DNA of 64,000 nt from a virus, in the IMG/VR virus record IMGVR_UViG_3300020048_000014, positions 96,001 through 160,000 of that record. One strand, given 5' to 3'. The notes below the pieces were generated by a model. It was not told the DNA's origin. It did no database searches and saw only the letters and a program-made list of their open reading frames with translations. Shown piece by piece: positions 389 to 63,162 of this stretch (its first letter is position 1; each line of letters starts with the position of its first letter). A program made the position numbers and the translations under genes.

Positions 389-1168
389 TTAAAAATTGTA
401 ATGAAATTCAGAAAATTTTGAATGTAGAGAGCCTAATATCTCTCTACTATCATCTGCTTGTGGTTTAATAATCGGCCTGATGGTGTGTAGATCAGAAAAT
501 CCATGTTCTGTATCCCTTTCGTGGGTATATTGTTGGACATCATTAAAATTATGATCGAAATATGGCTTATCTAAAAATTTATAGACTTCTAGCATAGAAT
601 TTTTAGGATTCGTGGTCAAAGAATCATAATCTATTAGATGAAATCTATCACTATATCCTCGTAAAAACGCATCTTGGATCGAGTTAAATGCTGATCCGAC
701 TACACCATTGGACCAAGCATTGACTCTGCCTGATAATATAGACATTTCTGGCACTCTTATCATCGGAGAGTTTATATCTTTCAATTCTTTTCTATATAAT
801 TTTTCAAAAGATGCTAAAATACATGTTAATTTTCTTGTAGTCGTCAGAATTTTTACGGGTCTATCTAATGATAATTCCAATAACTCTAATAAATGCGCCC
901 ATCCTCTTGATTTATTAAATACTATCGGTCTATCAGTATCTGAATGGTATGAGTATACCATATCACGAATGATCTGAAGTTGTTTTTCGACTGGTTCTGA
1001 TGCTTTAATAGATGGATGCTTCTGCCAAAGATCATGAATATTTGATACGATATCAGATAAACCACTTGTTGGTGTTACGTGAAAATCAGGATTTTGAGCA
1101 AGAATATTGCAGAGTAACGTAGATCCAGATCTCGGCATTCCATTTATAAATAATATCTCTTTTTCCAT
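389..1168 (-). CDS. PAPS-dependent sulfotransferase
   Basis: N-terminal 5'-PSB loop FINGMPRSGSTLL, plus FNKSR and the downstream LIDYDSLTTNPK motif. ATG start (MEKEILF) at 1168 preferred over TTG at 1204. Confidence 0.85.
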   Translation of the reverse strand: MEKEILFINGMPRSGSTLLCNILAQNPDFHVTPTSGLSDIVSNIHDLWQKHPSIKASEPVEKQLQIIRDMVYSYHSDTDRPIVFNKSRGWAHLLELLELSLDRPVKILTTTRKLTCILASFEKLYRKELKDINSPMIRVPEMSILSGRVNAWSNGVVGSAFNSIQDAFLRGYSDRFHLIDYDSLTTNPKNSMLEVYKFLDKPYFDHNFNDVQQYTHERDTEHGFSDLHTIRPIIKPQADDSREILGSLHSKFSEFHYNF

Positions 1169-1217
1169 ATTACAATAATTTAGTTGTATATTTTCAATAG
1201 TCAATTAAATATTTTCC

Positions 1218-2105
1218 ATGACATCAATTTTTCATATAACAGGTGGATTAGGCAAACATATTTTAGCTAGTAATATTATCAATTCATTTAAAGATAACTT
1301 TCCCGAAAAGGAAATTGTCGTGTCTAGCGCATATCCAAGTGTATTCGAGAGAAATCCAAATGTATCAGAGAGTCTAAATATCGCTAAACATCAATATTTC
1401 TACAAGAATTATATTTTTAACAAAGATGTCGAGATTTTTGCACAAGAGCCATATAAACAAACATCACATATAATCAAAAATAAACATTTAGTGAATACAT
1501 GGTGCGATATGATTGGGATAGAGCTTACTCAAACAGCTTCTATACATTTAAATTTTAGAGAGCTTGAGTTTACTCGAAATAAATTAAGCCAATATGGTGA
1601 TAAACCAATTTTAGTTTTTCAACCTTTTGGTGGAATGCCTAATGATAATCAAAAGTATAGTTGGGCTAGAGATATCCACCCAGAATTAGCTCAAAAAATT
1701 GTAGATAAATTGCAAACCGAATATACAATTTTACATATTTGTAATCCAAGTCACCCACAATTACAAAATTGCATCAGAGTTGACGATAGATTGAATCCAA
1801 ATATGTTATTTGCAATTTTGAGTTTATCTACTAAAAGAATTTTAATTGATTCTTGTTTGCAACATGCTGCGTATGCGCTCAACCTGCCTTCTTTGGTTAT
1901 TTGGAATGTTACGTCACCGAATCAATTCGGTTATGGGTTACATGAGAACATTGTATCTCACAATGAACAGTTGAGTGGTGGTATAAATTCATATTTATTC
2001 AATTATGAGATAGGTGGCATTATTGAAGAATGTCCGTATCAGTCATATGATGATATGTTTGATGTGGATACTATCATGAAACATATAGATAATAACTTCT
2101 TATAA
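1218..2105 (+). CDS. Glycosyltransferase, GT9 (heptosyltransferase-like) GT-B fold
   Basis: ITGGLGKHIL N-terminal motif, LVFQPFGG, and the C-terminal LIDSCLQHAAYALNLPSLVIW motif resembling the GT9 DSGxxHxAxA motif. Confidence 0.65.
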   Translation: MTSIFHITGGLGKHILASNIINSFKDNFPEKEIVVSSAYPSVFERNPNVSESLNIAKHQYFYKNYIFNKDVEIFAQEPYKQTSHIIKNKHLVNTWCDMIGIELTQTASIHLNFRELEFTRNKLSQYGDKPILVFQPFGGMPNDNQKYSWARDIHPELAQKIVDKLQTEYTILHICNPSHPQLQNCIRVDDRLNPNMLFAILSLSTKRILIDSCLQHAAYALNLPSLVIWNVTSPNQFGYGLHENIVSHNEQLSGGINSYLFNYEIGGIIEECPYQSYDDMFDVDTIMKHIDNNFL

Positions 2106-2130
2106 TAGTCAGATATATTAAATAATTCTA

Positions 2131-9445: not shown

Positions 9446-10165
9446 ATGAGTTCTTTTTTAGATAAATTTATTGCCGATACCTATAATGGAATACTTCATT
9501 CCGATATTGGATTAGATGAAACATCAATATCACAAATATTCGATGGGGATGGAAATAAGTCCGCATTAAGCCTTGGTAGAGAAAATAATGGTGGTAAAAT
9601 TACCGGACCTCTGGTATCAACTTCATCGACAGTGGAGCAAAATCTATCAGTAGGTGGAGGTATTACTGCTAATAATATATCATCATCATCTATTAATACT
9701 GATAGTATAGTAATTAACAATTCATTGCGAGCATCTAACGTCAATTACCCCGTTTCAGATAATTTGACAAGCCTATTTGCATTAATTTATCCGATTGGGT
9801 CTATATATTTGAACGCTGTAGGTACAAATCCGGGAATTATATTTAGCGGGACGACATGGAGGCAGATATCGCAAGGCAGATTCCTTGTCGGGGTAGGTAC
9901 GGGTAATGATGGTATCAATTCTTCACAGACATTTGCTCCCGGTAATAGTCAGGGTGTATATAAACACCAGATTACAATAGACGAAATGCCAAGGCATAAC
10001 CATACATATCAGACTATTACAGATGCTAATGTAAATCGAGAGTTTGGTGAAACCAAAATCGATGGTTATTTTGATACAAGAGATACATCGTTTGTCGGTG
10101 GCGATCAACCACATACCAATATACCGCCGAGCTTCGGGGTATATATCTGGCAAAGAACAGCTTAA
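9446..10165 (+). CDS. Baseplate wedge / tail-collar type protein (T4 gp10/gp12-like C-terminal domain)
   Basis: YPIGSIYL...NPG...GTTW...QGRFLVGVG...HQITIDEMPRHNH...HTNIPPSFGVYIWQRTA is a classic phage baseplate/collar motif set. Confidence 0.8.
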   Translation: MSSFLDKFIADTYNGILHSDIGLDETSISQIFDGDGNKSALSLGRENNGGKITGPLVSTSSTVEQNLSVGGGITANNISSSSINTDSIVINNSLRASNVNYPVSDNLTSLFALIYPIGSIYLNAVGTNPGIIFSGTTWRQISQGRFLVGVGTGNDGINSSQTFAPGNSQGVYKHQITIDEMPRHNHTYQTITDANVNREFGETKIDGYFDTRDTSFVGGDQPHTNIPPSFGVYIWQRTA

Positions 10166-12437: not shown

Positions 12438-13169
12438 ATGCCATTCCCATCTGACATTTCATTATCATCAACCGCTAAATATTTTGGGATTATAGACCCT
12501 AAAAAGGCTTATAATTTGAATTGGGATGTTGTTTGGAGTTTTACCTATGCTCTCACAGGAACTCAACATGGGTTTTCATCATTTTTAACAACCTCACCGA
12601 CAATTACGGGTGGTTTACCGGGGCAATATTTAGGTTCCGATAATCAAAATATGATTTTATCCATAGGATTTGATTCTACTGGATATTTCGCATTATCTTC
12701 GCCTTTAAGACCGGGTATACCTTTATCGTCAACTATTCCTAATAGTATTATTGTTCGAGATTCTAATGGTAGTGTTATTTTTAATAAATCTTTGTCATCT
12801 TTAGATACATCTTTTATACTTTCCTCTAGTGTAAAAACTTATCAAACATTAAGATTCAGATATTCTAATGCTGGCAGGAAACTCAGCATAGATTTTAAAA
12901 AATCCAATAATAAATATTCAACTTTAACAAGTTTGAATATTACAAGTTTAAATATTACAGATAATTTAACAGTTTATCCCGGATTTTCATTTTGTTCTCC
13001 TATATCTGGTTTAAATATTGAACCTTCCAGTATGTTTATTCAAAATTTTCACACTCAGGGAAATATATTATCACCCACTTATGAGACTTTAGAAATGATA
13101 CCTCTCCCTGGAAATATATTGAATACTTTTACTACAATTTCCGGTATTACTGCTACACCTTTTGTATAA
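12438..13169 (+). CDS. Putative lectin/ConA-like beta-sandwich virion protein
   Basis: WSFTY...GFSSFL...LSIGFDSTG pattern resembles legume-lectin-like domains. Follows the fibre genes. Confidence 0.4.
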   Translation: MPFPSDISLSSTAKYFGIIDPKKAYNLNWDVVWSFTYALTGTQHGFSSFLTTSPTITGGLPGQYLGSDNQNMILSIGFDSTGYFALSSPLRPGIPLSSTIPNSIIVRDSNGSVIFNKSLSSLDTSFILSSSVKTYQTLRFRYSNAGRKLSIDFKKSNNKYSTLTSLNITSLNITDNLTVYPGFSFCSPISGLNIEPSSMFIQNFHTQGNILSPTYETLEMIPLPGNILNTFTTISGITATPFV

Positions 13170-13921
13170 TGAATATATTAGATACTATATTAAGTGAGAC
13201 TATTTGTTCAAATCTAGTGATAGCCGATAACGGAAGTAGATACTGCAAATTTTTAACAAATAATATCGGTAGATTACATCCAACGAGTAAATCTTTTTGT
13301 AATTTAAAATGTAGAAACACTGGTCCCTATAATAATAGGGATATATCTTCAGAAGAAGAAAAAACATTTATAATATCCACTCTGAAAAAATATAATCCAT
13401 TTTTTAACATACAGAAAGAATTTATTGATAGAGTTTTAAAGACGTATAGATTACCTGTTGATATCGTTTCACCAGAAGAGTATTATGATGTTAAAAAATG
13501 TCTAGAGTTTTTAAATCAATATGATGGTTTTAAAAAAATTTTATTAACTGGATCTATTATAACGAAAAACGCAACCACTCCTTTACATGATATTGATATT
13601 GTTTTATGGTTTTCTAATCTAGAAGTTTATATAAATAATAATATTGTATCTAAATTGCCAAAAGAGATAAATGGCATCAAGACTGATTATTTCATCATAA
13701 TAGGCGATAAAGATATATCGTTATCTTCTTTATTTTTTTGTTGCGTATCCCCGGAAGATAAAATATTATATAAATCCAAATGGTTTGAATTAGATTTACG
13801 ATCTATTCCAGACGGGTTTACTATAATTGACGCAGAATGTGAATATTTTGATATAGTCATGAAGGAAATGTTTTTAAACGATAACAAAAAAAATAAAAAA
13901 TGTTGTGGGGGTAAATCATGA
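13169..13921 (+). CDS. Stand-alone Pol-beta-superfamily nucleotidyltransferase with Cys-rich N-terminus
   Basis: ILLTGS...HDIDIVLW...KTDYF gives the hG[GS], DxD and third-Asp catalytic motifs. Confidence 0.7.
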   Translation: MNILDTILSETICSNLVIADNGSRYCKFLTNNIGRLHPTSKSFCNLKCRNTGPYNNRDISSEEEKTFIISTLKKYNPFFNIQKEFIDRVLKTYRLPVDIVSPEEYYDVKKCLEFLNQYDGFKKILLTGSIITKNATTPLHDIDIVLWFSNLEVYINNNIVSKLPKEINGIKTDYFIIIGDKDISLSSLFFCCVSPEDKILYKSKWFELDLRSIPDGFTIIDAECEYFDIVMKEMFLNDNKKNKKCCGGKS

Positions 13922-14610
13922 ACGTTTCTTGTGGAAATAACTTTACAGATTGGAGAAATGGTGTAATAAATGATGAGTGTATATGTACATATTTAGATGA
14001 ATTGAATCCGGGTGAAGATACTGGTTTTCTAGAATCTAGAGCGTTAGAATCTGCCGGAGTCCCATTATTTGGAGAATTTGTATATAATGGAAAAAATTTT
14101 TATGTCAATTCACCACCATTAGAACTTATACCCAGTGGACCGACGGATAACATTGGTAATTTCTATACCATAACTAGGATAGATGATGACACAACTTCTA
14201 CTACTTCTACTACTTCTTCTACTTCTACTACTTCTACTACTTCTACTACACCACCACCTACACCACCACCTACACCACCACCTACTACTACTACTACTAC
14301 TACTACTCCTAATACTACTACTACTCCTTCACCATCGTGTTGTGTGTGTTGCACGACAGCAACACCCATCGTTATAATACCGCCTGTGATTTTTACTCTT
14401 CCGCCAGTAATACCGGGGACTAATATCCCCCTAACTACCACACTACCACCCAATTACACTTCATTAACTTCGGAAGAATTGACAACAACACCGACCACTG
14501 CCACCACAACTGTCAATCCGACGACATTCACATCATCTACGACTACGACCATATTCATTAAACCCACATGCGATTGCAGTGGGAATAATTGCAATTATTT
14601 AGGTTTTTGA
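13918..14610 (+). CDS. Thr/Pro-rich mucin-like protein with Cys clusters
   Basis: TTSTTSTT...TPPP x3...T8 run, plus CCVCC and CDCSGNNC motifs. Confidence 0.75.
   Translation: MNVSCGNNFTDWRNGVINDECICTYLDELNPGEDTGFLESRALESAGVPLFGEFVYNGKNFYVNSPPLELIPSGPTDNIGNFYTITRIDDDTTSTTSTTSSTSTTSTTSTTPPPTPPPTPPPTTTTTTTTPNTTTTPSPSCCVCCTTATPIVIIPPVIFTLPPVIPGTNIPLTTTLPPNYTSLTSEELTTTPTTATTTVNPTTFTSSTTTTIFIKPTCDCSGNNCNYLGF
14191..14337 (+). repeat. Coding microsatellite block (ACTTCTACT units, ACACCACCACCT x3, ACT x8)
   Basis: Read directly from the sequence. 12-bp unit x3 at 14248-14283 and (ACT)8 at 14284-14307. Confidence 0.95.
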
Positions 14611-33050: not shown

Positions 33051-33219
33051 TGGTGCATTCTTCTAAAAGTTTAATAAAATTGGGTGAGGTGTTCCAGCAA
33101 GCCATTGTAGATAATGACACAATCTCAGCGGAAATAATCTCGGGAAATGTTCTCCTAATCATAGGAATCAAAATCTTGGGCAGTTTATTCTCCATATCTA
33201 TATCTTCATTAATCGTCAT
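33037..33219 (-). CDS. Mini-ORF containing a T4-type major capsid (gp23)-like peptide
   Basis: ILIPMIRRTFPEIISAEIVS resembles the gp23 motif L(I/V)RRxxPxLIAx(D/E)I(V/C)xVQPM. Confidence 0.5.
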   Translation of the reverse strand: MTINEDIDMENKLPKILIPMIRRTFPEIISAEIVSLSTMACWNTSPNFIKLLEECTNDNK

Positions 33220-45749: not shown

Positions 45750-45837
45750 CATTAACTATTTTCGATTATTTGATTATCAATAGGGAATTTGAAAATAATT
45801 TAAAATAATTTCATTTGACAGCTTATTAAGTAATAAT

Positions 45838-51168: not shown

Positions 51169-51975
51169 ATGGTAAAATCAATTAAAATTTTAAACGGATT
51201 TCTCACAGAAATGCCCGGTTTTCATCCCGGTATTCAGTTTGATTTCGAGGCTGATAAAGTAAACTGTTTCTTTGGTCCAAATGCGGCAGGAAAAAGCACT
51301 ATTATGAAAATGATCAAATCTTATTGCGGTATCGAGAAAGGTGGATGGTCTAAAATCAGTTCTGAATTAGCTTTGGGTGCTCAGTGTCAGGCGCACTTTC
51401 CTTGGGTCTATAGAGCCTATTCACCAGCATCTAGTGACTGTGTGGTAGAGTGGGACGGTATTGCATCATTTTATAATGATGGAGATATTAAGATTGATGA
51501 ATGGGCATGGTTTTCCAATAATATTTCATTATCTGAGGATGGGATGACTAGCGAATCTGAACAGTTTCAATATTTGATGGACAAGCCATCATCTGGCCAA
51601 TATCGCATGATAAAGATCAACAAACTTCTCAACATGGCGAAGAATCCACCCGATTTGACAGCGTATGTCTCAGCCCATCCGACACAAAGAGCGGAATCTG
51701 ATTATATCAGAACCTTACCCAGAAATGGTAAACCTACACTTATTTTAGATGAACCAGAACGTGCGTTATCTTTACCAAAGCAAATGGAATTGTTTAAACT
51801 TTTAAACGAATTGACAAGCGAGTATCAAATCATCATTGCAACACATTCACCATTTGTTCTGTTCCAAGAAGACATGAAAATCTTCAATATTGAAGAAGGA
51901 TACTCTGATAAGTGTCTGGATATTTTCAGACAATGTGTGGAAACTAATATAAATAAAGAAAATGAAACATTATAA
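51169..51975 (+). CDS. Stand-alone ABC-type ATPase (AAA_21-like)
   Basis: GPNAAGKST, SSGQ signature, LILDEPE, IATHSP. Confidence 0.88.
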   Translation: MVKSIKILNGFLTEMPGFHPGIQFDFEADKVNCFFGPNAAGKSTIMKMIKSYCGIEKGGWSKISSELALGAQCQAHFPWVYRAYSPASSDCVVEWDGIASFYNDGDIKIDEWAWFSNNISLSEDGMTSESEQFQYLMDKPSSGQYRMIKINKLLNMAKNPPDLTAYVSAHPTQRAESDYIRTLPRNGKPTLILDEPERALSLPKQMELFKLLNELTSEYQIIIATHSPFVLFQEDMKIFNIEEGYSDKCLDIFRQCVETNINKENETL

Positions 51976-52324: not shown

Positions 52325-53065
52325 TCAAACACTGAGCACCTGAGTAATATGTTTTAAGATGGCAGATCGAGAGATATCATGTATATCAAATTTCATACAG
52401 TGTATGTTATTCTTTCTAGAGAACTCCGTATCGAATAATTCAAATACATTCATGAATCCCGAATCTCGAATATCGGACTGTTTGGCATCACCACAAATAA
52501 TATATTTCGATCCTCTACCAAATCTGGTCATAATAGTGGTTAACTCGCTCCTAGTAGCGTTCTGAGCTTCATCAATGATAACTACTGCATTATTGAATGT
52601 AAGACCTCTCACGAAGTTTACAGGCATCGCTTTAACATACTCCTGTTCGAACAGCGCATTTACTGTTGTTTTATCTGTAATTTCCGATATTTTTTCGAAT
52701 AACGGTAAGGTATACGCTGCGAATTTTTCATTCTCATCACCCTTAAGATATCCAAGAGATTTTGATGCACTTTCTACCACTGTTCTAATATAGATAATTT
52801 TATCAACTTTTCTATCACGAAGCATTTCCATCGCAGAATAAACTGAAATATAACTCTTCATAGATCCAGCAGGACCATCTAGAAATACCATATTAGTTTT
52901 ATCATTTTGTGTCAGATAATAGAACGACGTATGATTATCTGTGAATGGGAATGGTTTTTTAATTTGTATATTAGAACAGTCGAAGTTCTTTTTATATTGT
53001 TTAGTGAACTCATCCGTAATATCTACCGACTCTTTCCTCTTCCGAGGTACTTTTTTAGGTGTCAT
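52325..53065 (-). CDS. phoH: PhoH-like ATPase
   Basis: GPAGSMKS, YIRTVVE, LGYLKGD...EK, FVRGLTF, IIDEAQN, CGDAKQSD. Confidence 0.92.
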   Translation of the reverse strand: MTPKKVPRKRKESVDITDEFTKQYKKNFDCSNIQIKKPFPFTDNHTSFYYLTQNDKTNMVFLDGPAGSMKSYISVYSAMEMLRDRKVDKIIYIRTVVESASKSLGYLKGDENEKFAAYTLPLFEKISEITDKTTVNALFEQEYVKAMPVNFVRGLTFNNAVVIIDEAQNATRSELTTIMTRFGRGSKYIICGDAKQSDIRDSGFMNVFELFDTEFSRKNNIHCMKFDIHDISRSAILKHITQVLSV

Positions 53066-53138: not shown

Positions 53139-53870
53139 ATGCGAGCGTCAATATCGGGCTGTACAAACAGTGGGAAATCAACATTGGTTCAGTCTTTTCT
53201 TCAAAAATGGCCAATGTATCAAACACCCTCTAAAACATATCGTGATGTGATCCTAGAATCAGGTTTAGGCCATAGCACCAATACATCTGCTGAAACTCAA
53301 CTTCTCATTTTAGACTGGATGATGAAAGAACAAGAGAAATTTGGTCCGAAGAGTAATGTGATGTATGACCGTTGCCCACTAGACAATCTAGTATACACTC
53401 TCTATGCTAACTCAAAAGAATTAATTTCTGATGAAGTATGTGCAGCAACTATCTCTTTGGTCAGAGAGTCTCTAAAAGATTTAGATATTATTTTCATGCT
53501 CCGATATGAACCCGGAATTAAAATTGTGAATGACGGTATGCGAGATACTGATTTGGATTTTATTAAAGAAACCGATCAAATTTTTGGAGACTTATATCAT
53601 CAGTATTGTGAAAATCTTGAATCGGATATTTTCTTTCCTGCTGAAGATTGCCCTGCCATTATTCAAGTTGATGGTAAAACTATTGATGATCGGCTATGGT
53701 TCATTGGTGAATTTATCGATTATAAGGGTAACTTAATCGAGACTACCGATAGCATATTAGACCCAACTAATGTTGATCTTCTTGAGAAGATGCTGGGAGA
53801 GCAACAAATCGAACTAGGTAAAGATGCTCAAATCAAAACATTAATGAATCAAATTAAAAAAGGACGATGA
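53139..53870 (+). CDS. P-loop kinase (dNMP/NadR-AAA_28-like)
   Basis: ISGCTNSGKST, YDRCPLDNLVY. Confidence 0.8.
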   Translation: MRASISGCTNSGKSTLVQSFLQKWPMYQTPSKTYRDVILESGLGHSTNTSAETQLLILDWMMKEQEKFGPKSNVMYDRCPLDNLVYTLYANSKELISDEVCAATISLVRESLKDLDIIFMLRYEPGIKIVNDGMRDTDLDFIKETDQIFGDLYHQYCENLESDIFFPAEDCPAIIQVDGKTIDDRLWFIGEFIDYKGNLIETTDSILDPTNVDLLEKMLGEQQIELGKDAQIKTLMNQIKKGR

Positions 53871-54670
53871 GAGAGAAAATAGGAATAGGAATTGTTACTT
53901 GCCGACGACCGGAAATGTTGACAAAATTACTTGAATCTATCAAGTATCGGAATGACTGTGAATTGGTCATTATTAATGATGGGGAACCTCTAGAAGTAGA
54001 GGGTTATAATTTCTATGTTAGAAACAATATTGAAAATCTTGGAGTTGCAAAATCTAAAAACTTAGCTTTAAAACATCTTTCAAATAAAAATTGTGAGCAT
54101 ATATTCTTAATAGAAGACGACATGTTAATCAAGGATGATACTATCTTTGAAAGATATATCAAAGCATCAAAAGCTACTGGTATTCAACATCTAATGTTTG
54201 GATATCATGGTCCAGCTAATAAGAACGGTATTTCCAAAGGAAAGCCATGCCCAAGACTTATTGTCAATTATTCTGATGATGTATCAATTGCATTGAACCA
54301 GCATTGTGTTGGGGCATTCTGCTATTATTCCAGAAAGTCTTTAGAGGAGTGTGGATTGATTGATGAAAAATTCAAGAACGCATTTGATCACGTATCCCAT
54401 AGTTACGAATTAGCTCTCAAAGGTTTCTCTACTCCTTACTGGTGGTGGGCAGATTTAACTAATTCGTGTGATTACATTGAAGAACAAGCATGTTCTGAAG
54501 AATCATCAACTATAAAAACACCTGAGAAGATGTTGCAGTGGAGGACCAATATTGAAGAGTCTATGAAATATTTTAAAGAAAAGTTTGGGTATATGCCATT
54601 TGGTAACGATAGAGTTCCTGATAAATCAGAACAGGAAGTTAGCAGCTTCTTAAAATTTATAAAACCATGA
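53867..54670 (+). CDS. Glycosyltransferase family 2
   Basis: IGIVTCRRP, IINDG, GVAKSKN, FLIEDD. Confidence 0.88.
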   Translation: MREKIGIGIVTCRRPEMLTKLLESIKYRNDCELVIINDGEPLEVEGYNFYVRNNIENLGVAKSKNLALKHLSNKNCEHIFLIEDDMLIKDDTIFERYIKASKATGIQHLMFGYHGPANKNGISKGKPCPRLIVNYSDDVSIALNQHCVGAFCYYSRKSLEECGLIDEKFKNAFDHVSHSYELALKGFSTPYWWWADLTNSCDYIEEQACSEESSTIKTPEKMLQWRTNIEESMKYFKEKFGYMPFGNDRVPDKSEQEVSSFLKFIKP

Positions 54671-55323
54671 AAATTTTAATAAAATTCCCTACCAGAGATC
54701 GGCCAGAAAAATTTTTAAATACTTTAAATAGGTATTATGAAATGTCAGCGAACATTGATAATTTAAATTTTTTAATATCGTGTGATATAGACGATGATAC
54801 TATGAATAATAGTAGAATGTTAGATATACTCAAATCATATAAAAATTTAACAGTAGATTTTAGATCGAATAAGAATAAAATAGAAGCTGTCAATTCAGGT
54901 ATATCCGAGTATACCTCATCATACGATATAATTTTATTAGCTTCTGATGATATGATTCCCGTAGAAGTTGGGTATGATAATATTATTATAAAAGTTATGG
55001 AGAGGTATTTTCCCGATGGTGATGGCGTTTTATGGTTTAACGACGGTTTACAGGGAATGAAATTAAATACCTTATGTATTTTGGGAAAAAAATACTATGA
55101 CAGGTTCGGATATATATATTATCCCGAATATAAGTCACTTTACTGTGATAACGAATTCACAGAGGTTTCTAAAAATTTAGATAAGGTGGTTTATTGTGAT
55201 AAAGTGCTTATAATGCATAATCATCCGGGACATGTCAATTTATTTGATGACCTATATAGGAAAAATGATTCATATGCTAATGAGGATATGTTATTGTGGA
55301 TTACACGTTCAAAATTGATATGA
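54667..55323 (+). CDS. Glycosyltransferase (GT-A fold)
   Basis: FPTRDRP, SCDIDD, LLASDDM, YCDNE. Confidence 0.8.
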   Translation: MKILIKFPTRDRPEKFLNTLNRYYEMSANIDNLNFLISCDIDDDTMNNSRMLDILKSYKNLTVDFRSNKNKIEAVNSGISEYTSSYDIILLASDDMIPVEVGYDNIIIKVMERYFPDGDGVLWFNDGLQGMKLNTLCILGKKYYDRFGYIYYPEYKSLYCDNEFTEVSKNLDKVVYCDKVLIMHNHPGHVNLFDDLYRKNDSYANEDMLLWITRSKLI

Positions 55324-55973
55324 TAATATATACACACTACAGCGAATCACATTTTGATATGTTTAAGGAATACTTTCTCAAATCACTGAGAGTCCTTTAC
55401 ACCAAGGAGGAACTACCACTAAGAGTAGTGTATCATACTCAAACAACAGAGAATGGTGAGTTTATGAGCAACGGGTGGCTTGAGGCAATGGATATTAAAT
55501 TAGATGTAATATTACAGGCTATAGAAGAAAATTATGGAAAATCATTTATATTTTCTGATTCCGATATTCAATTTTTTCAGCCATTCGTGAGCGATATTGT
55601 AGAAAAATTAAAATCTAATGACATTGCTTGTCAAGAAGATCGCGGAACATTATGTGCTGGATTTTTCGGATGTAATGCCAATCAAAATACTAAAAATTTA
55701 TTTGAGACAATTAAAAAAACATTTAAATCGATGGTCAACGATCAAGTATGTTTAAATTATTATAAAAATTTAGTGACTTATACGTTACTTAATAGAGATC
55801 AATTTTATACTATAGGAAATTCATTTGATAATTCAGATGGAACCAATGTCTGGGATAATATAACTGATATTATCCCACCTAAAAGTATATTGATACATCA
55901 CGCGAACTATGTAATCGGTAGAGAAAATAAATTGAAACTTTTAAAGATGATTAAGGATAATTATGGTAATTGA
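55320..55973 (+). CDS. Nucleotide-diphospho-sugar transferase (PF03407-like)
   Basis: FIFSDSDI, LCAGFF, VNDQVCLN, HHANY. Confidence 0.8.
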   Translation: MIIYTHYSESHFDMFKEYFLKSLRVLYTKEELPLRVVYHTQTTENGEFMSNGWLEAMDIKLDVILQAIEENYGKSFIFSDSDIQFFQPFVSDIVEKLKSNDIACQEDRGTLCAGFFGCNANQNTKNLFETIKKTFKSMVNDQVCLNYYKNLVTYTLLNRDQFYTIGNSFDNSDGTNVWDNITDIIPPKSILIHHANYVIGRENKLKLLKMIKDNYGN

Positions 55974-56826
55974 TTTTTTTAAAGATATATTCCAATACGA
56001 AAAATTCCCTGTAGAATATCGTTGCTTTCAACAGCTAGAGAATGTCAGTGACATAAACTATGTCGCTATTCCATGGACCCAGATATTGAATAGTGGATGG
56101 TTAAACTTTCCGGGTAGGCGCAATAGGAATGAGTATCTGAAAGAATTGGCATCCTATAAAATAAATCAATATAATAATTTCACTGTATGTCAGCACGATG
56201 ATTATATGCAATTAATAGAATTTTATAGGCATTTACATATCACAACAGTATTTTCTCCATTACATAATAGATACAATAATATTGAAGGTATTGATATTAT
56301 TCCTATATCATTTACAAATAGCTTCACATTTGAAGAGAAGATTAAAGATATAGATTTTTCATTTGTTGGTGCCTATGTTACTCATCCTATACGTAGATAT
56401 ATGAAAGAGTATATAAATGGGGACAATATAATTTATAGAAACGATTATCATGTAGGAGGAGATATCTCTATAAGTAAACCAATAGAAGAATCTGAGTATA
56501 AAAATATTTTAGAGCGAAGCAAGTTTTCAATTTGTCCAAGGGGGTCATCTCCATCATCTGTCAGATTTTGGGAAAGTATAGCTGCCGGGGCGATACCTAT
56601 ACTAGTTTCAGATGATTGGGTGCTACCTGAGTGGGATTGGGATAATACCATTTTAAAAATTTCAGAGGATCAATTTACGAGTTATGGTTATGATGATATT
56701 TCACATCTCGTAGATCGGGTGTTGAATGATTGTGATAGATATAATAGATTGCAAACCAACTGCAAACTCGCCGCTAATAAATTCAAATCCGACAATTTCA
56801 AGGATTATATATTAAAAAATTTATGA
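55963..56826 (+). CDS. Exostosin-family glycosyltransferase (GT47-like)
   Basis: YKNILERSKFSICPRG...SVRFWESIAAGAIPILVSDDWVLP. Confidence 0.85.
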   Translation: MVIDFFKDIFQYEKFPVEYRCFQQLENVSDINYVAIPWTQILNSGWLNFPGRRNRNEYLKELASYKINQYNNFTVCQHDDYMQLIEFYRHLHITTVFSPLHNRYNNIEGIDIIPISFTNSFTFEEKIKDIDFSFVGAYVTHPIRRYMKEYINGDNIIYRNDYHVGGDISISKPIEESEYKNILERSKFSICPRGSSPSSVRFWESIAAGAIPILVSDDWVLPEWDWDNTILKISEDQFTSYGYDDISHLVDRVLNDCDRYNRLQTNCKLAANKFKSDNFKDYILKNL

Positions 56827-57560
56827 TATTTGCCCACAACATGCCCGGTATAGGACTGGGTAATAAAATGTTTATTAATGCGTTTTGTTACATTATATCT
56901 TTACAAAAAAGTGAAGAGTTTACTACTATACCAATAGAATATTTTCAAAATACTTTAATCAATACACAATACAGACAGTTAAAAAATCCATTGTATACTA
57001 GTTCATTTGGATATCAATATGTCGATATGGAAAAGGTTTTAAACCACTCCGGGGATATTGTTGTGGATTCATACGTTCAAAGATATCAATATTATGATAA
57101 TTATCGGGATGATTTGAAAAGATTTTATGTAGAATCTCAAATACCCTCCACAGGATCTATTGACACTACTCTACATATACGAAATGGTGATTATAAGACC
57201 CTCGATTGGTATCTTGGTTTGGATTCATATTATAAAATATTATCAGAAATAAATTTTAATAGTTTGGACATAGTGGCAAATCATATAGATGATGATGTCA
57301 TGAAATTAAGTGATAAATACAATGCAAATGTATATAATTCAAGCACCATTGAAGATTTTATATTTTTATCAAATTCTAAAAATATAATACTCTCACAATC
57401 AACATATGCATGGTGGGCAGCTTTTTTGGGGAGTCCAGAAAATGTTTATATACCCGTTTCCAGAAAACATATATCTAAAGGTATATGGCTGGATAAGCCG
57501 AGTATTGATGATATTGATTTAGTTGGAGGATTTAAAGAATTTACTAATATTATTTTATGA
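56823..57560 (+). CDS. GT11-like (alpha-1,2-fucosyltransferase-like) glycosyltransferase
   Basis: GLGNKMF, LHIRNGDY, ILSQSTYAWWAAFLG. Confidence 0.8.
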   Translation: MIFAHNMPGIGLGNKMFINAFCYIISLQKSEEFTTIPIEYFQNTLINTQYRQLKNPLYTSSFGYQYVDMEKVLNHSGDIVVDSYVQRYQYYDNYRDDLKRFYVESQIPSTGSIDTTLHIRNGDYKTLDWYLGLDSYYKILSEINFNSLDIVANHIDDDVMKLSDKYNANVYNSSTIEDFIFLSNSKNIILSQSTYAWWAAFLGSPENVYIPVSRKHISKGIWLDKPSIDDIDLVGGFKEFTNIIL

Positions 57561-58114
57561 GAAATTATATAGACATAGGTTGTAATGTTTTGGGTGGTTA
57601 TAATCATCTAACTAGATTAGAAGATTTTTCAAATTTTGAAAAACTGATATTTGTTGAACCGAATCCCGAATGTTGGGAATTTTTGGAAACAAATTTACCC
57701 ATAAAATCTAAATTATTACGAAACGCATTATCAACAAAAGTAGAAGAGGTGGAATTAATAACTAGAGCAGATCAATTAGCTTGCGTAGGTGCTACTATTC
57801 TTGGACAAGAATATTATGATTTTAATCTACATAAGCATAATCTACATGTTGACAAGTATAATAAATATAAAATAACCACCACAACACTGGAGAATATATT
57901 AGTTGAATGTGATATAATACCGGAGCACACTTTATTAAAGATAGATGCCGAGGGTGTAGAATACGATGTATTAGAAGATGTAATCAATAAACAGTTAAGA
58001 TTTGGAAAAATATATTGTGAATTTCATATTCAAAAAAATGTTGACATTGAGAGAAAGGCTGATATCATCAGAAAGATGAATAAATTAGGAACAACCTTAG
58101 TAGAATGGTATTAA
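57557..58114 (+). CDS. FkbM-family SAM methyltransferase
   Basis: YIDIGCN, FVEPNP, LLKIDAEGVEY, IYCEFH. Confidence 0.85.
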   Translation: MRNYIDIGCNVLGGYNHLTRLEDFSNFEKLIFVEPNPECWEFLETNLPIKSKLLRNALSTKVEEVELITRADQLACVGATILGQEYYDFNLHKHNLHVDKYNKYKITTTTLENILVECDIIPEHTLLKIDAEGVEYDVLEDVINKQLRFGKIYCEFHIQKNVDIERKADIIRKMNKLGTTLVEWY

Positions 58115-58117
58115 ATT

Positions 58118-58759
58118 ATGTTAATTGAATTTCAAAATATTAATAAGTATAGTATAACACCTAAAGGTGTAATACATGTGGGGATGCATAAGGCAGAAGA
58201 ATATGAAACGTATATTGCATCCGGTGTATCTTCAATAATCTTCATTGAAGCTAATGAATCTTTATGTAAAGAAGCTGAAACTAAATCAATGGCTGCTTGG
58301 ATAAAACATGCAGCAATTTCCGATAAAAAGGAATTGATTCAATTCAATATCACCAATAATGGTGAAAGTTCATCAATACTTGAACTTGGTGATCATTCTT
58401 ATATATATCCATCAATAGTTAATATTGAAAGTGTTGAGATGATGACATCCACACTAGATGAAATATTTCAGATTGGTGAATATGAGCCTATCGATCTAAT
58501 TGATAGAGTATTTCACCAATTACATCGTTTCAATATACTCAATTTAGATATTCAAGGGGCCGAGTTAAAAGCTATGAAGGGATTATCGGATTGGAGTAAC
58601 ATAGAAGCAATTTTTACCGAGGTAAATTACCGAGAAATGTATAAGGGGTGTCCACTTATAGAAGAAATTGATGAATTCTTATTGGAAAAGAGATTTAAAA
58701 AGGTGGAGGAATCGAATACAGGTGCCGGATGGGGTGATGCCCTATATATTAAAATGTAA
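58118..58759 (+). CDS. FkbM-family SAM methyltransferase
   Basis: VIHVGMH, FIEAN, LNLDIQGAEL, FTEVN, WGDALY. Confidence 0.88.
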   Translation: MLIEFQNINKYSITPKGVIHVGMHKAEEYETYIASGVSSIIFIEANESLCKEAETKSMAAWIKHAAISDKKELIQFNITNNGESSSILELGDHSYIYPSIVNIESVEMMTSTLDEIFQIGEYEPIDLIDRVFHQLHRFNILNLDIQGAELKAMKGLSDWSNIEAIFTEVNYREMYKGCPLIEEIDEFLLEKRFKKVEESNTGAGWGDALYIKM

Positions 58760-58760
58760 T

Positions 58761-59096
58761 ATGTTTGACGCAATAAATTATTTACTACACGAAAAGAATA
58801 AATCCGAATTAGATCCAGATCTTCTTCAGGAATTTAATCCATTCTTCACAGCTAAAGTTTTCTCATATTATGATTCGGGAAAATACTCTGGATATATAAA
58901 CGACACATTAAATCTATACTCGGGGATTTTTAAAACTAAGGAAGAGGAGTTCAAGTTTTTTGATGCTGTTATTCCAAAATTAAAGAGGAGAAAATCGGAG
59001 TATATTAAAAAGCCAGCACCGGGGAAAGTTAAAGAAGAATCCCAACATATACCGGAATTCTTTTCGAGAAGAGAAATTGAATCATATGACAAGTGA
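58761..59096 (+). CDS. gp62: Clamp loader small subunit (T4 gp62-like)
   Basis: MFDAINYLL...FNPFF...SYY...INDTLN...FFDAVIPKLKRRKSEYIKK. Confidence 0.6.
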   Translation: MFDAINYLLHEKNKSELDPDLLQEFNPFFTAKVFSYYDSGKYSGYINDTLNLYSGIFKTKEEEFKFFDAVIPKLKRRKSEYIKKPAPGKVKEESQHIPEFFSRREIESYDK

Positions 59097-59374: not shown

Positions 59375-59806
59375 ATGTCTAATTATACACACCTAGAACA
59401 AGCCCCGATCTCAATTGACTTTGCACCAGTCCAGAAGTCCCATATCGATCTTTCTGATCGCAATCTACCGACAGATTTTGGACTCGATGATTATATCTTT
59501 TCTCAGTTGTTAGACGATATCATCCTAATTGAGTATGCTGACATGGTGATGGATGAGGTCGCAGGTGATTATATTATGCGTGGTGGGATCGCAATTCCGG
59601 TGAATCAGATTCATAATGCTTGGAGGAAGGGTAAAATTATCATCACTGGTCCACAAGTTCGATGGGTTAAAAAAGGTGATATTGTAGTATTTCCAAATAA
59701 CATGGGAATCCCGATTACGAATCTGGAAGTTGAAGACCATGGCAAAATTAAGAATGGATTGTTTTTGAACGAACAACGACTCTTCGGTGTTTGTAAGGTT
59801 AAATGA
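59375..59806 (+). CDS. GroES-like co-chaperonin (T4 gp31 analogue)
   Basis: LLDDIILIE...GGIAIP...GKIIITGPQVRWVKKGDIVVF. Confidence 0.8.
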   Translation: MSNYTHLEQAPISIDFAPVQKSHIDLSDRNLPTDFGLDDYIFSQLLDDIILIEYADMVMDEVAGDYIMRGGIAIPVNQIHNAWRKGKIIITGPQVRWVKKGDIVVFPNNMGIPITNLEVEDHGKIKNGLFLNEQRLFGVCKVK

Positions 59807-59807
59807 T

Positions 59808-60347
59808 ATGAAAGTTTTCCACATGATTCCTTGGAATACCGATAAAAATATCGGGAGGGCGTACAATGAGATGATGTTCCTAGTGGGCGATAATGATTGG
59901 GTCTGCTTTATAGATGGTGATGCTGTTCACACATCACATTTTTTCGGAAAACGGATTGAGGATGTGATCACATCAAACCCCGAATATTCAATGTTTACAT
60001 GCATGACAAACAGGGTGGGTAGACCATATCAAATACCTGCAAATGTCGATACCAAATCAAATGATCAAAAATATCACAGGGAATTTGGCGATTTATTATG
60101 GGATAAAAATGGGGTTAATGTGTTGAATATAACAGATCGCCCAAACCTAAGTGGTGTTATGATTTTGATAAAAAAAACTATGTGGGAAACCGTAGGAGGA
60201 TTTAAAGAAAAGAAGATGATTACCATAGATGGTGATATGCATCAACGAGTTAAATGCTCTGAGGGCAAGGTTGGTTTGATGCGAGGAATATATGTCCAAC
60301 ATTGGTATAGGGGTGGAAACGCCCAAAACAAAAAACATTTACAATGA
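59808..60347 (+). CDS. Glycosyltransferase (GT-A fold)
   Basis: NIGRAYN, WVCFIDGD, LSGVMILI, GGF, IDGD. Confidence 0.75.
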   Translation: MKVFHMIPWNTDKNIGRAYNEMMFLVGDNDWVCFIDGDAVHTSHFFGKRIEDVITSNPEYSMFTCMTNRVGRPYQIPANVDTKSNDQKYHREFGDLLWDKNGVNVLNITDRPNLSGVMILIKKTMWETVGGFKEKKMITIDGDMHQRVKCSEGKVGLMRGIYVQHWYRGGNAQNKKHLQ

Positions 60348-61181
60348 GTATTGAATTGCTTTATCTCTCATTTTAGTGTCTATTATTTCAGGATAGTCAT
60401 ATCCCAACATTTTACTCGCATTAAAGTTATACAAACATCCATTTAATTTACGCCTTATACATTCTTCGGAAAATATCCTATAGTGATAACATAAGAGTGT
60501 AGCATTTTTAATGCCTACCTCATTAAAATTTTGATAATGTATTGATTTTTTTGTAGACATGTTAAAAGGTTCGTTATTGACACTATCAACACTCACAACG
60601 GTATTAATATTATAGGGGGAGTATGGATTATGAGGACCACAGTTTTTAAATTTAATTGGTTTAAAAACTGATTTACATGGTATCAGTTTCGAATAACATC
60701 TGAATTTATATTGAGATAAATGTTTAGATACATGTGGCAGATCGTGATTCCATCTATATGTAGTGTCCTTCAATAAAGATTGTGGATTGTTCACTCTTCC
60801 ATTTCTAGTCATCATAACCCATGGGATCTTAATCCTATCAACATTTTTATAGGTTGTTTCTAAATGTGTTCGGATAGTTTTTTTATCATTGGAGGTAATA
60901 AATTCGTCAACATCAACATTAATAACCCAGTCAAATGATTTAACCTTATTATATAAATGTTTTAAAATTCCACCATTTAAAGTGACCCTATTTGACGTAA
61001 AGGATTTAACATTTAAGATAGTTATATTATCTAAATATTTACTGTCAATTTTATCATATGTCCCTACATCTGAATTATCGTCATATATATAAATTTTATC
61101 GACCCCTTCATTTATATAATATGCTATAAATTCATGTATAAATGGTTCATTTTTACATCTGGTTATTAATGCTAATGTCAT
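60339..61181 (-). CDS. Glycosyltransferase family 2 (Glyco_tranf_2_4/GT92-like)
   Basis: CKNEPFIHEFIAYY...IYIYDDNSD...WVINVDVDEF...KS...HY. Confidence 0.82.
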   Translation of the reverse strand: MTLALITRCKNEPFIHEFIAYYINEGVDKIYIYDDNSDVGTYDKIDSKYLDNITILNVKSFTSNRVTLNGGILKHLYNKVKSFDWVINVDVDEFITSNDKKTIRTHLETTYKNVDRIKIPWVMMTRNGRVNNPQSLLKDTTYRWNHDLPHVSKHLSQYKFRCYSKLIPCKSVFKPIKFKNCGPHNPYSPYNINTVVSVDSVNNEPFNMSTKKSIHYQNFNEVGIKNATLLCYHYRIFSEECIRRKLNGCLYNFNASKMLGYDYPEIIDTKMRDKAIQYSL

Positions 61182-61326
61182 AATGCTCTTGTTGAATATT
61201 TAACCAATTACTAATAAAATTATTAATCCGGTTGTTATATTCAGTTGTCAGATTTATTAAATAAAAAGAGATCAGTTTTCATTAACGATATATCATTAAA
61301 CAGGAAACAAATTTTGCCAAATAACT

Positions 61327-61902
61327 ATGAAACATTACTATAAAAATATACCGGGGTGGTTTACATTTAAACAGTTCTATTCTAAAATTCTAGAAGATTT
61401 ACCCGATAGCGCACATATAGTGGAAATAGGATCTTGGGAAGGACGTTCTGCTATATATATGGGGGTGGAAATACTAAATTCTGGTAAAAAAATTAAATTT
61501 GACTGTGTGGATAAATGGATTGGGATATTACCTCCAACAGAACATAGAAAAAAAGTTGTTTACCACAAAGATGCACTAAAGTCTCCAAATGGTTCATATA
61601 ATTGTTTTTTAAAAAATATTGAACCCCTTAAAGATGTGATCAATCCTGTCCGATGTTCTTCACTAGATGCTGCACTTTTATACAAAAACGAATCTTTAGA
61701 TTTTGTATTTATCGATGCTGACCATTCATATAAAGAAGTTAAAAAAGATATTCTAGCTTGGATGCCGAAAATAAAAAATGGGGGCATACTTTCAGGGCAT
61801 GATTATCCATTTCCAGACGTTAAACGAGCAGTCGATGAAAATGTTGAAGACGTTATTATACTTAAAGATGAAAAGGTTTGGTATAAAAAAATAATCTGTT
61901 AA
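61327..61902 (+). CDS. Class I SAM methyltransferase (Methyltransf_24-like)
   Basis: VEIGSWEGRS, DFVFIDADHSY, GGILSGHDY. Confidence 0.88.
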   Translation: MKHYYKNIPGWFTFKQFYSKILEDLPDSAHIVEIGSWEGRSAIYMGVEILNSGKKIKFDCVDKWIGILPPTEHRKKVVYHKDALKSPNGSYNCFLKNIEPLKDVINPVRCSSLDAALLYKNESLDFVFIDADHSYKEVKKDILAWMPKIKNGGILSGHDYPFPDVKRAVDENVEDVIILKDEKVWYKKIIC

Positions 61903-62417
61903 TGTTCAACGTAAAAGGCTTCTAAAAATTCAGATATTCTTTTATTATATTCAGTGGTTAAGGCAATACCTTTTTCTAATGTAAAATTATTTCGTTTTTG
62001 TAGAGAAATAGCAATGTCCATACTGTTTCTATAACATACTATAAATTGTGGATTGGGTAAATAATTCAACCATACGTCTATGGTTAGACAGGTTCTAGGA
62101 TCTTTAAATCCCCAACTTTCCATATTTTTAGTCTTAGCAGAATCTATTTCTTTAGATATAATAGATTTAATATTTTCCTCATACCTAGCCCCCACCTCTA
62201 GTATTTTTTCTCTTGGTGGTGGATTATGCCAACTGCCACCAGATTGATGTAATATTTTATCATTCAAACGTATTATATCAACGTTTTCATAATGTCCTTT
62301 TGGATTATCTTTTAACCCCAATAATAATTTATCCCCCATATGGACCTCAGAATTTAAAGATCTTGCGACTAATGAAGTCGCAGCCCTATGCATCCCCAAC
62401 ACTACAATTGTTTTCAT
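61899..62417 (-). CDS. Sulfotransferase-family protein
   Basis: VVLGMHRAATS (LGMHRSGTS-type), NPKGHYE, WGFKDPR, VCYRN...A.SL.KR. Confidence 0.8.
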   Translation of the reverse strand: MKTIVVLGMHRAATSLVARSLNSEVHMGDKLLLGLKDNPKGHYENVDIIRLNDKILHQSGGSWHNPPPREKILEVGARYEENIKSIISKEIDSAKTKNMESWGFKDPRTCLTIDVWLNYLPNPQFIVCYRNSMDIAISLQKRNNFTLEKGIALTTEYNKRISEFLEAFYVEH

Positions 62418-63162
62418 TTATATACTTATGTAAAAGTTTTTTATAATCAACATTCCACTTTGGTTGTAGGATAATATCTCCGATTGGAATTTTTCCATCG
62501 TCTTTTAACTTATCTATATGTCTTTTATGTCTGATTAAGATATTTTCTTTATTAGTCGAATCACAACCTCGCCCAGACATATGGTAACTTCGACCGCCCC
62601 ACAAATACATCCAAGATACTTCATCATCTGAGGGGTCTGCATTAATCACTTTACATTTATAATCTTTTTTAATTTTAATTACGAATGACATATCATACCC
62701 AGCATTTTCCAATTCATGTTTTCCCGATCTCTCCCATATTTCTTTAGTATATACGATACCAGAGTTTCCAACACTGTGTAGAGCATCTATCTTCCCATGA
62801 TTTACTGTGGCACCATTTTTCCAATGTAGTAAGTCATATCCCGGAAAATATTTATTGATATTTTCTAGGTGATTTGTTAAAGCTATGTCATCATCATCCC
62901 ATACTGCTATCGTATTATATTTACAATTAGTCACCGCAAAATTTTCCTTTTCTCCGATAGTGTTAAAAGTTTTATCTAAATTTATGATTCTCACATTTGG
63001 GTGGTCAAAATATAATCGTTGTTCGGGGTAGTCGTTCACAATTACCATTTCTTTATCACCATCGTAATCTTGATTCAAAAAGCTATATATTGATTCCTCT
63101 AATAAATCCACCCTACCATAAGTGATACACTTACAAGAAATAGGAAGCTTTTTGATATTCAT
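62386..63162 (-). CDS. Glycosyltransferase family 2
   Basis: CITYGR...FLNQDY...IVND...IGEKEN...AVWDDDD. ATG MNIK at 63162. Confidence 0.85.
   Translation of the reverse strand: MNIKKLPISCKCITYGRVDLLEESIYSFLNQDYDGDKEMVIVNDYPEQRLYFDHPNVRIINLDKTFNTIGEKENFAVTNCKYNTIAVWDDDDIALTNHLENINKYFPGYDLLHWKNGATVNHGKIDALHSVGNSGIVYTKEIWERSGKHELENAGYDMSFVIKIKKDYKCKVINADPSDDEVSWMYLWGGRSYHMSGRGCDSTNKENILIRHKRHIDKLKDDGKIPIGDIILQPKWNVDYKKLLHKYINENNCSVGDA

Follow-up and report, generated by a model that had tools for sequence, protein, structure and literature searches.

The glycan genes and their genomic setting

The 64,000-nucleotide window analysed here spans bases 96,001-160,000 of the IMG/VR virus record IMGVR_UViG_3300020048_000014 (196,721 bp, judged 96% complete, G+C about 34%) and carries a large set of genes for building and decorating a glycan, placed among the replication and tail genes of a T4-like phage (Table 1). 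A sequence-only reading of the window had counted 12 glycosyltransferase (GT)-like, two sulfotransferase and three methyltransferase genes, had taken them as a pathway for a sulfated, methylated glycan and had called for profile assignment of each open reading frame (ORF). Pfam and PHROGs searches uphold this count, with 11 GTs supported by profiles, one weak GT9-like ORF, two sulfotransferases and three methyltransferases. The GT families are unrelated to each other. Together with three nucleotide-6-deoxyhexose enzymes, the kit amounts to about 20 soluble enzymes, and glycan enzymes make up approximately one tenth of the phage genes. None of 18 proteins analysed contains a hydrophobic or membrane-spanning segment, and BLASTP found no pairwise similarity among the 18, which are therefore not recent duplicates of one another.

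The phage is a lytic, T4-like virus of approximately 197 kb from a large uncultured aquatic lineage. In line with the tailed phage proposed earlier, the T4-like core genes gp10, gp32, gp41, gp43, gp44, gp46/47, UvsX and UvsW were found; Pfam identifies both replication and baseplate genes of T4 type, including gp44 (with its lid domain) and a gp6-like protein encoded just upstream of the window, and gp46/47-like genes, the UvsW helicase and PhoH within it. The gp43 polymerase shares 28-30% identity with its counterparts in cyanomyoviruses, pelagimyophages and Caulobacter phage Cr30, and a megablast search with 24 kb of the window against GenBank phages returned zero matches; we therefore place the phage in a deep T4-like lineage that, by these comparisons, has no cultured representative. 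Related sequences were gathered via gp43, PhoH, the GT47 protein, the tail-module GT2 and the sulfotransferase, and four larger contigs were taken whole. Hereafter, G000 denotes this genome, G001, G002, G004 and so on related contigs, and L-numbers related loci.

Table 1. Glycan-related and core genes. Positions are those of the window, except where the prefix G000 marks positions in the whole record; E-values follow the database name.
Feature	Position	Strand	Support and remarks
Sulfotransferase ST1 (Sulfotransfer_3/_1)	389-1204, true start probably ATG 1168	-	Pfam 9e-14; looks complete; PRSGST loop for 3'-phosphoadenosine 5'-phosphosulfate (PAPS)
GT9-like ORF	1218-2105	+	Glyco_transf_9 E 2.6e-3, under cut-off; PHROG of unknown function
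Mucin-like protein	13918-14610	+	230 aa: 59 Thr, 19 Ser, 30 Pro; CCVCC; C-terminal CNYLGF
GT2 (tail-module)	14589/14622-15410	+	Pfam E 1.7e-8; GT-A type; probable ATG 14622
GT2_5	27244-27936	-	Pfam 3e-11; first gene of gp41 helicase operon
GT4-type GT-B	36572-37759	-	Pfam weak, PHROG 5e-21; between gp43 and gp46
Thymidylate-kinase-like P-loop kinase	53139-53870	+	AAA_28/dNK; PHROG thymidylate kinase 6e-15; first gene of island operon
GT2 (GT2_53867)	53867-54670	+	Pfam 3.7e-6
Variable cassette (the next six rows)	54667-58759	+	
GT	54667-55323	+	PHROG 2e-21 only
PF03407 GT	55296-55973	+	Pfam 1e-9
GT47-like	55963-56826	+	Pfam 4e-14, C-terminal third of domain only
GT11	56823-57560	+	Pfam 8e-9
FkbM methyltransferase	57557-58114	+	Pfam
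FkbM methyltransferase	58118-58759	+	Pfam
Putative gp62-like clamp-loader subunit	58668-59096	+	Homologues mark distal boundary of variable region in relatives
GT	59787-60347	+	PHROG 9e-29
GT2_4/GT92	60339-61181	-	Pfam 6e-14
Methyltransf_24	61327-61902	+	Pfam
Sulfotransferase, short	61899-62417	-	Pfam 1e-6; 172 aa; atypical loop HRAATS, possibly degenerate
GT2	62386-63198	-	Pfam 4e-7
RmlA-like sugar-1-phosphate nucleotidyltransferase, short form	G000:92716-93459		247 aa; immediately upstream of gp44
RmlD-like reductase	G000:93456-94352		Immediately upstream of gp44
RmlB-like 4,6-dehydratase	G000:59948-60949		About 36 kb upstream
Gp10 C-domain	9446-10165		Pfam; two Mtd_N fibre proteins come next
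gp32	20596-21528		Pfam
gp41, DnaB-type helicase	25935-27254		Pfam
UvsX, RecA-type	31230-32432		Pfam
gp43, family-B polymerase	33209-35767		Pfam

The GT4-like protein gave a good AF2 model (pLDDT 86), whose best Foldseek matches are the GT4 GT-B enzymes MshA, BshA, SenB, WaaG, HepE and Gtf3. The model of the GT9-like ORF, built from a four-sequence alignment (pLDDT 51), was too poor for a structure search, and a profile search of this ORF against PDB gave no match. Sequence searches of PDB with the kinase, GT2_53867 and the GT4-like protein returned either nothing or meaningless matches.

Several features indicate that these are long-resident phage genes rather than fresh host captures. Specifically, the G+C content of the glycan genes (28-39%) matches that of the phage. 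Viruses supply all or most members of the conserved GT families: Atlas clusters of the GT4, for which there are 1,158 homologues on contigs reaching 210 kb, are virus-only, and those of GT2_53867 are mostly viral (78-100% Viruses), with 24-31% identical homologues in 560 mycobacteriophages (including Llij and, as gp234, Myrna) and in lambdoid phages. Additionally, the RmlA-like gene, compared with 185,000 genomes, reaches a best identity of only about 50%, and its matches are scattered over many phyla and give no clue to the host.

A fixed hypervariable slot and a mucin-like ORF of the tail-fibre operon

The main gene cluster occupies a fixed position in the lineage. In nearly all of 47 phoH loci the gene order is phoH, a divergent thymidylate-kinase-like kinase followed by GT2, 4-8 kb of variable genes, the gp62-like gene and a homologue of the gene at 59375. 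The flanks are well conserved: the kinase is 55-81% identical in nearly all of these loci and retains a conserved sigma70-type promoter, and GT2_53867 directly follows it in nearly all relatives with 41-82% identity. The content between the flanks is exchanged. In the closest relative, L034/L035, whose PhoH is 95% identical, the whole cassette from 54667 to 58759 is missing and other genes stand in its place; the 59787-61899 stretch is likewise missing there and replaced by other genes. The block of PF03407, GT47 and GT11 genes recurs only in two distant contigs (L008/L009), at 50-55% identity. A Pfam census of 140 non-redundant ORFs from 24 loci assigned the slot content almost entirely to glycan enzymes across the lineage, namely GT2 (28), GT11 (11), Methyltransf_24 (9), Epimerase (8), GDP_Man_Dehyd (7), GT17 (7), FkbM (7), RmlD (6), GT7C (6) and GT10 (4), together with TylF and C-methyltransferases. 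The fixed flanks and the shuffled content therefore define, at the level of gene content and order, a lineage-wide hypervariable glycan island, and this layout indicates strong diversifying selection on a phage-made glycan, whichever target it has.

Two further ORFs lie beside phoH in some members. In L078-L080, a 190-aa ORF of TTPPPS repeats stands directly next to phoH (L078, approximately 1126-1698), so that the lineage has two types of mucin-like ORF. In G000, an AAA_21/AAA_15 (AbiEii/OLD-type) ATPase gene (51169-51975, + strand) is located in a variable stretch beside phoH and is found in some relatives only.

Co-occurrence across related phages, another check proposed with the sequence-only reading, separates a conserved core of the kit from a variable part. 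Outside the island the core consists of the tail-module GT2 (77-78% identity), GT2_5 (54-61%; G001, G002 and G004) and the GT4 (68-88%), and the conservation of the GT4 exceeds that of the polymerase in G001 (88% versus 79%) and equals it in G002 and G004. A second accessory islet, at 59787-63198, comprises five genes of both strands (GT, GT2_4/GT92, Methyltransf_24, the short sulfotransferase and GT2); it is wholly missing in L009 between the homologues of 59375 and 63214 and largely missing in L034. ST1 is divergently paired with the GT9-like ORF. Set against the nearest relatives, this pair is an insertion, as are the Rml genes; ST1 is absent from the syntenic site in G001 and G002. Pair and Rml genes recur together in other members, and the pair is kept in L211-L213. 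Always beside it in these three loci is a homologue of the gene at G000:94555-96375 (+ strand, reaching into window positions 1-375), whose 606-aa product contains internal repeats and matches no Pfam family; this protein may be structural or fibre-like and tied to the sulfotransferase/GT9-like module.

Sulfotransfer_3 is present in five of 11 larger relatives, an epimerase/dehydratase in nine and FkbM in four; four of the 11 are complete (198-212 kb). Sulfation and methylation, as predicted from these families, are therefore patchy options of a shared toolkit. The heparan-sulfate logic that the sequence-only reading saw in the combination of an exostosin with a sulfotransferase is not supported, since it would call for a full exostosin, a carbohydrate sulfotransferase linked to it and a supply of UDP-GlcA: the GT47 match covers only positions 177-280 of the 293-position profile, with an EXT1 match of 50 residues (E 1.7e-4), the sulfotransferases are Sulfotransfer_3 members that are not adjacent to the GT47 gene, and neither GT64 nor UDP-glucose dehydrogenase was seen among the scanned ORFs.

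A proteome-wide scan for Ser/Thr-rich segments singled out one ORF of the window, the last-but-one gene of the gp10/tail-fibre operon. Its product, with runs such as TTSTTSTT and PPPTPPPT, resembles a mucin, and its stop codon lies 11 nt before the probable start codon of the tail-module GT2. Thr/Ser/Pro-rich ORFs occupy the equal position in G001, G002 and G004, with the Cys motif and the C-terminus kept. Of 49 loci found with the tail-module GT2, 40 form a close group (GT2 at least 67% identical) with enough upstream sequence. In all 40, the upstream ORF ends in C-x(3-5)-C-[NK]-x-L-x-[FY] and is separated from the GT2 by 10-13 nt from stop to start; 37 of them contain a 30-residue window with at least 70% Thr/Ser/Pro, and the ORF length ranges from 103 to 814 aa. 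The C-terminal motif is absent from five distant loci, where the GT2 is 46% identical, and from every other ORF of the genome. Pfam recognised no family in ten mucin-like ORFs, the 706-814-aa forms included. The GT2 itself is 67-82% identical in 44 related contigs and belongs to a family of 3,296 metagenomic proteins; tblastn against GenBank phages found no homologue, and its best PDB profile match is TarP, a weak one (E 2e-4). The island and the mucin-GT2 pair occur together on at least nine large contigs. Taken together, these comparisons identify the mucin-like ORF as a real, conserved gene family. Mucin-like regions are the archetypal substrate of O-glycosylation, and the protein is a candidate O-glycosylation acceptor. 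No description of a mucin-GT2 pair was found in the searchable literature, and in the 97 kb of the HTVC008M annotation read for a comparable pair no GT is annotated.

The ORF between the fibre genes and the mucin-like ORF (13169-13921, + strand, 250 aa) gives a weak NTP_transf_2/Polbeta match and has a Cys-rich C-terminus (…KKCCGGKS); no homologue is present in G001 or G002.

Sugar-nucleotide supply and transcription

The absence of nucleotide-sugar synthesis genes noted in the sequence-only reading is true of the window and does not extend to the genome, which encodes RmlA-, RmlB- and RmlD-like proteins outside it. RmlC (PF00908) was not found in the genome, which thus lacks a complete RmlABCD set for dTDP-L-rhamnose; the product of the Rml-like genes can be described as some nucleotide-6-deoxyhexose. 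An APS (adenosine 5'-phosphosulfate) kinase was not found in the genome either, so the phage depends on the host for PAPS. The absence of a flippase stands for the whole 197-kb genome, in which PF01943 was not detected, and the priming phosphoglycosyl transferases PF02397 and PF00953 were also not detected there. With no primer and no flippase, the genome does not present a self-contained Wzx/Wzy or ATP-binding cassette (ABC) pathway for O-antigen or capsule; Wzy and ABC-2 were not searched for.

Two promoter classes were distinguished. Class 1 is a full sigma70-type promoter, TTGACA-N15-17-TAAATA, with nine perfect cases genome-wide; perfect copies precede phoH, the RmlD-RmlA-gp44 operon, the GT4 gene (TTGACA-N16-TAAATA) and the 59375 operon. 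Related TTGACx promoters precede the kinase-headed island, GT2_5-gp41 (TTGAC-N17) and ST1, the last with an early-type TTGACT-N16-TAAATT ahead of ATG 1168; relatives retain the promoters of the kinase and GT2_5. Class 2 consists of a -10 element only, [AT/AC]TAAATA, 5-6 nt before the start codon, and serves the baseplate genes, other structural genes and the GT9-like ORF, whose late-type motif, ATTAAATA-N6-ATG, is not conserved in L211-213. The mucin-GT2 pair lacks a separate promoter and is carried on the tail-fibre transcript. A late class was considered for the GT4-like gene and the 59375 operon and rejected on account of their perfect TTGACA -35 boxes. A generic scan for sigma70 promoters and terminators yielded noise in this AT-rich DNA (92 found versus 72 expected). 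Judged by promoter class, most of the kit is early, and early expression does not discriminate between the possible targets of the enzymes.

In both classes TAAATA lies 5-6 nt before the start codon, for example at 36572-37759 (-), 52325-53065 (-), 59375 (+), 1218 (+), 2131 (+) and 5309 (+). This spacing implies very short or absent mRNA leaders, early and late alike.

Possible targets of the glycan and neighbouring genes

We propose, with a probability of approximately 0.45, that the kit glycosylates proteins of the phage itself. The mucin-like acceptor candidate and its GT2 stand at the end of the gp10/tail-fibre operon, the enzymes are predicted to be soluble, and neither a priming transferase nor Wzx is encoded. 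The early genes would enlarge the pool of nucleotide-6-deoxyhexose and supply the enzymes that elaborate the chain. The GT2 on the tail-fibre transcript would initiate O-glycosylation on the mucin-like protein and perhaps on further virion proteins; the variable island would then lengthen the chain, with methyl and sulfate groups as its caps. The outcome would be a strain-specific glycan brush on the particle, which could shield the virion or modulate adsorption and whose structure would be under diversifying selection. The virion glycocalyx suggested by the sequence-only reading thereby gains circumstantial support from the pair found in 40 of 40 loci, the soluble enzymes and the lack of export machinery, and the virion glycan itself is what we infer from them. 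There is a precedent in mycobacteriophages, whose own GTs are reported to glycosylate proteins of the capsid and the tail tube (PMC12363180, PMC11256854, citing Freeman 2023).

A number of points weigh on the other side. Both the glycan and the glycoprotein are deduced from sequence alone, the virion location of the mucin-like protein is putative, and Thr/Pro-rich linkers also occur without glycosylation. BLASTP of the genome's proteins against the long mucin-like forms found nothing, and the N-terminal domains of the mucin-like protein could not be recognised. Host-type early promoters drive most of the kit together with replication genes, an arrangement that fits host remodelling equally, and nothing ties the early island to the late GT2. 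In BLASTP the 18 proteins showed no significant similarity to Che8 gp110, the GT essential for capsid glycosylation; against Che8 gp108-110 as a whole the best match was GT2_53867 with gp109 (E 0.002, 21% identity). Additionally, published work interprets comparable gene sets as modifying the O-chain of the host (PMC1079782, PMC7029224, PMC12801897).

GT-rich islands are not new in such phages, a point that the sequence-only reading overlooked: aquatic T4-like phages have been known to carry them since P-SSM2 (2005), phage sulfotransferases are already annotated, and as a gene inventory the present kit joins an established type; what is new lies chiefly in the fixed slot with shuffled content in this lineage and in the coupling of a mucin-like ORF to a GT2. 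P-SSM2 was reported in 2005 with 24 'LPS' (lipopolysaccharide) genes in two clusters (PMC1079782), in pelagimyophages 162 proteins are LPS-related, with many encoded in the hypervariable tail-fibre region (PMC7029224), and S-SCSM2R has 13 GTs plus epimerases (PMC12801897); in these three reports host-surface modification, and sometimes DNA glucosylation, was inferred without a test. Synechococcus phages S-SRM01, S-SKS1 and S-SCSM1 have annotated homologues of ST1 with 25-28% identity, and the GT47-like gene is present in S-SKS1 as well. The present phage shares with these 'LPS' clusters a T4-like backbone with ten to twenty-odd GT, epimerase and dehydratase genes in plastic regions, the tail-fibre region included; here these are 11-12 GTs and three Rml-type genes. 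It differs from P-SSM2, S-SCSM1, S-SCSM2R and the pelagimyophages in belonging to a separate lineage by its polymerase, which is under 30% identical to theirs, and in its defined slot between kinase-GT2 and the gp62-like gene, and from the aquatic clusters generally in the mucin-like ORF coupled to a conserved GT2 and in the prominence of GT47, FkbM and Methyltransf_24.

Remodelling of the host cell surface, the standard view for P-SSM2 (PMC1079782), pelagimyophages (PMC7029224) and S-SCSM2R (PMC12801897), is the main alternative for the kit as well, if a tentative one. The enzymes would work on the cytoplasmic side of the membrane, where they would alter the host's own O-antigen or capsule intermediates on undecaprenyl, a host flippase or ABC transporter would export the product, and the effect would be to block superinfection, or the adsorption of progeny to infected cells and debris. 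Most of the genes do stand behind conserved sigma70-type early promoters, the fixed locus with variable content resembles bacterial O-antigen loci, and TarP, to which the tail-module GT2 is weakly similar, is a prophage enzyme that modifies host teichoic acid. This reading meets a genome with neither priming transferase nor flippase and a kit with no membrane-spanning protein. Moreover, the families of the conserved GTs are viral entirely or for the most part and have hundreds to thousands of members, and close bacterial donors are lacking, as the low RmlA-like identity illustrates. It also leaves the strict coupling of mucin-like ORF and GT2 in a late tail-fibre operon unexplained, a GT made late in the lytic cycle having little time to alter the envelope, and no experimental demonstration for any T4-like phage was found in the literature examined.

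The target of the aquatic T4-like 'LPS' or GT clusters, catalogued since 2005, has never been shown, and the conserved mucin-GT2 cassette provides a concrete, testable case. If the virion is the target, glycan shielding of particles would extend from mycobacteriophages to abundant aquatic myoviruses, with a bearing on adsorption, decay, grazing and defence evasion in nature. It is conceivable, if doubtful, that T4-like phages of this very abundant aquatic lineage wear a strain-specific methylated, sometimes sulfated 6-deoxyhexose brush, begun by the dedicated GT2 on the mucin-like protein of the tail-fibre module and elaborated by the island, and in effect form phage 'serotypes' under diversifying selection; in that event the 'LPS genes' known for 20 years in marine T4-like phages would have to be re-read as virion-glycosylation genes. 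If the host surface is the target, the island would be a phage-borne serotype-conversion system in a strictly lytic phage.

Comparison with other viruses that glycosylate bears on glycosylation of phage proteins in several ways. Like the mycobacteriophages Che8 (gp108-110), Corndog (gp38) and Myrna, as described in PMC12363180 (citing Freeman et al. 2023), the present phage encodes soluble GTs, with a structural-protein target that is here only putative. It differs from them in that the candidate acceptor is a separate mucin-like protein of the tail module, not the C-termini of capsid or tail-tube proteins, and in a far larger enzyme set that adds methylation, sulfation and its own sugar-nucleotide synthesis. 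By their general description, chloroviruses and mimiviruses resemble this kit too, with cytosolic GTs (exostosin- and fucosyltransferase-like), 6-deoxyhexose synthesis, O-methyltransferases and clade-specific clusters. Chlorovirus capsid glycans are N-linked and belong to a virus of a non-bacterial host, whereas the present case concerns a bacterial virus and a putatively O-linked, mucin-like acceptor.

It is unlikely that the late mucin-GT2 pair has nothing to do with the early island, with the island directed at a soluble or lipid glycoconjugate or at host proteins and the pair a feature of tail-fibre assembly or an adhesin, or a glycocin-like glycopeptide system. The two sets do differ in promoter class and lie approximately 40 kb apart, the closest PDB sequence match of the sulfotransferase is a protein-tyrosine sulfotransferase (weak, E 0.009), and conserved Cys pairs beside a GT2 recall the S-glycosylated glycocins. 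Nevertheless, both sets occur in every large contig of the lineage that spans both regions, mucin-like ORFs of 103-814 aa have no leader-peptide architecture, and positive evidence for any alternative acceptor was not encountered.

The hypermodified DNA that the sequence-only reading offered as an alternative is highly improbable. In that case a modified base would carry an oligosaccharide assembled by the GTs, the arrangement suggested for YerA41, or sugar as in the glucosylated hydroxymethylcytosine of T-even phages, and the DNA would thereby evade restriction. Glycan genes do share operons with replication genes (RmlD-RmlA-gp44, kinase...gp62 and GT2_5-gp41), similar to the interspersed GT genes a-gt and b-gt of T-even phages, which also have the gp42 hydroxymethylase, and a thymidylate-kinase-like gene heads the island. 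We retain the idea at all because Yersinia phage YerA41, with several GT-motif genes, carries a substituent of about 1 kDa, probably an oligosaccharide, on thymidine (PMC9023294), so that oligosaccharide-modified DNA may exist. Unlike the T-even phages, however, this phage lacks the required enzymes: PF00303, the thymidylate-synthase family, was not found in the genome in a search whose control worked, which means that there is no dCMP or dUMP hydroxymethylase. Tet/JBP was also not found in the genome, in a search with a silent control, and neither were AGT and BGT, the BGT control being silent; the GT4 model, as noted, resembles MshA/BshA/WaaG-type enzymes and not those of T4.

By established reasoning, blanket base modification relieves a phage of selection against restriction sites, and this genome shows extreme site avoidance. 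Among six-base palindromes with an expectation of at least 10, 14 of 52 have an observed/expected ratio (O/E) below 0.2, compared with 8 of 3,906 non-palindromes. Eleven are absent altogether (GGATCC, GTCGAC, CAGCTG, CGATCG, CCCGGG, CTGCAG, CTCGAG, GAGCTC, GTGCAC, TCGCGA and CCGCGG), at expectations of 10-54, and GTAC is found 118 times against 692 expected (O/E 0.17). This pattern argues that the DNA is readable by restriction enzymes. Additionally, O-methylation, sulfation and 12 unrelated GTs exceed any known DNA modification. The type IIS site GGTCTC is also depleted in G000.

A few other genes of the window are worth recording. Three are of homing-endonuclease type (40260-40646, -; 23350-24219, -; 45838-46299, +), the types being an HNH gene between gp46 and gp47, which relatives lack at that site, a GIY-YIG/NUMOD3 gene and a SegE-like gene. 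The product of 44910-45752 (-), 280 aa, weakly matches the PARP catalytic domain (E 2e-4) and may be an ADP-ribosyltransferase; it is not present in G001 or G002. Finally, 48378-48818 (+) encodes a retropepsin-like 'Zn_protease' (PF05618) that is 75-84% conserved in relatives.

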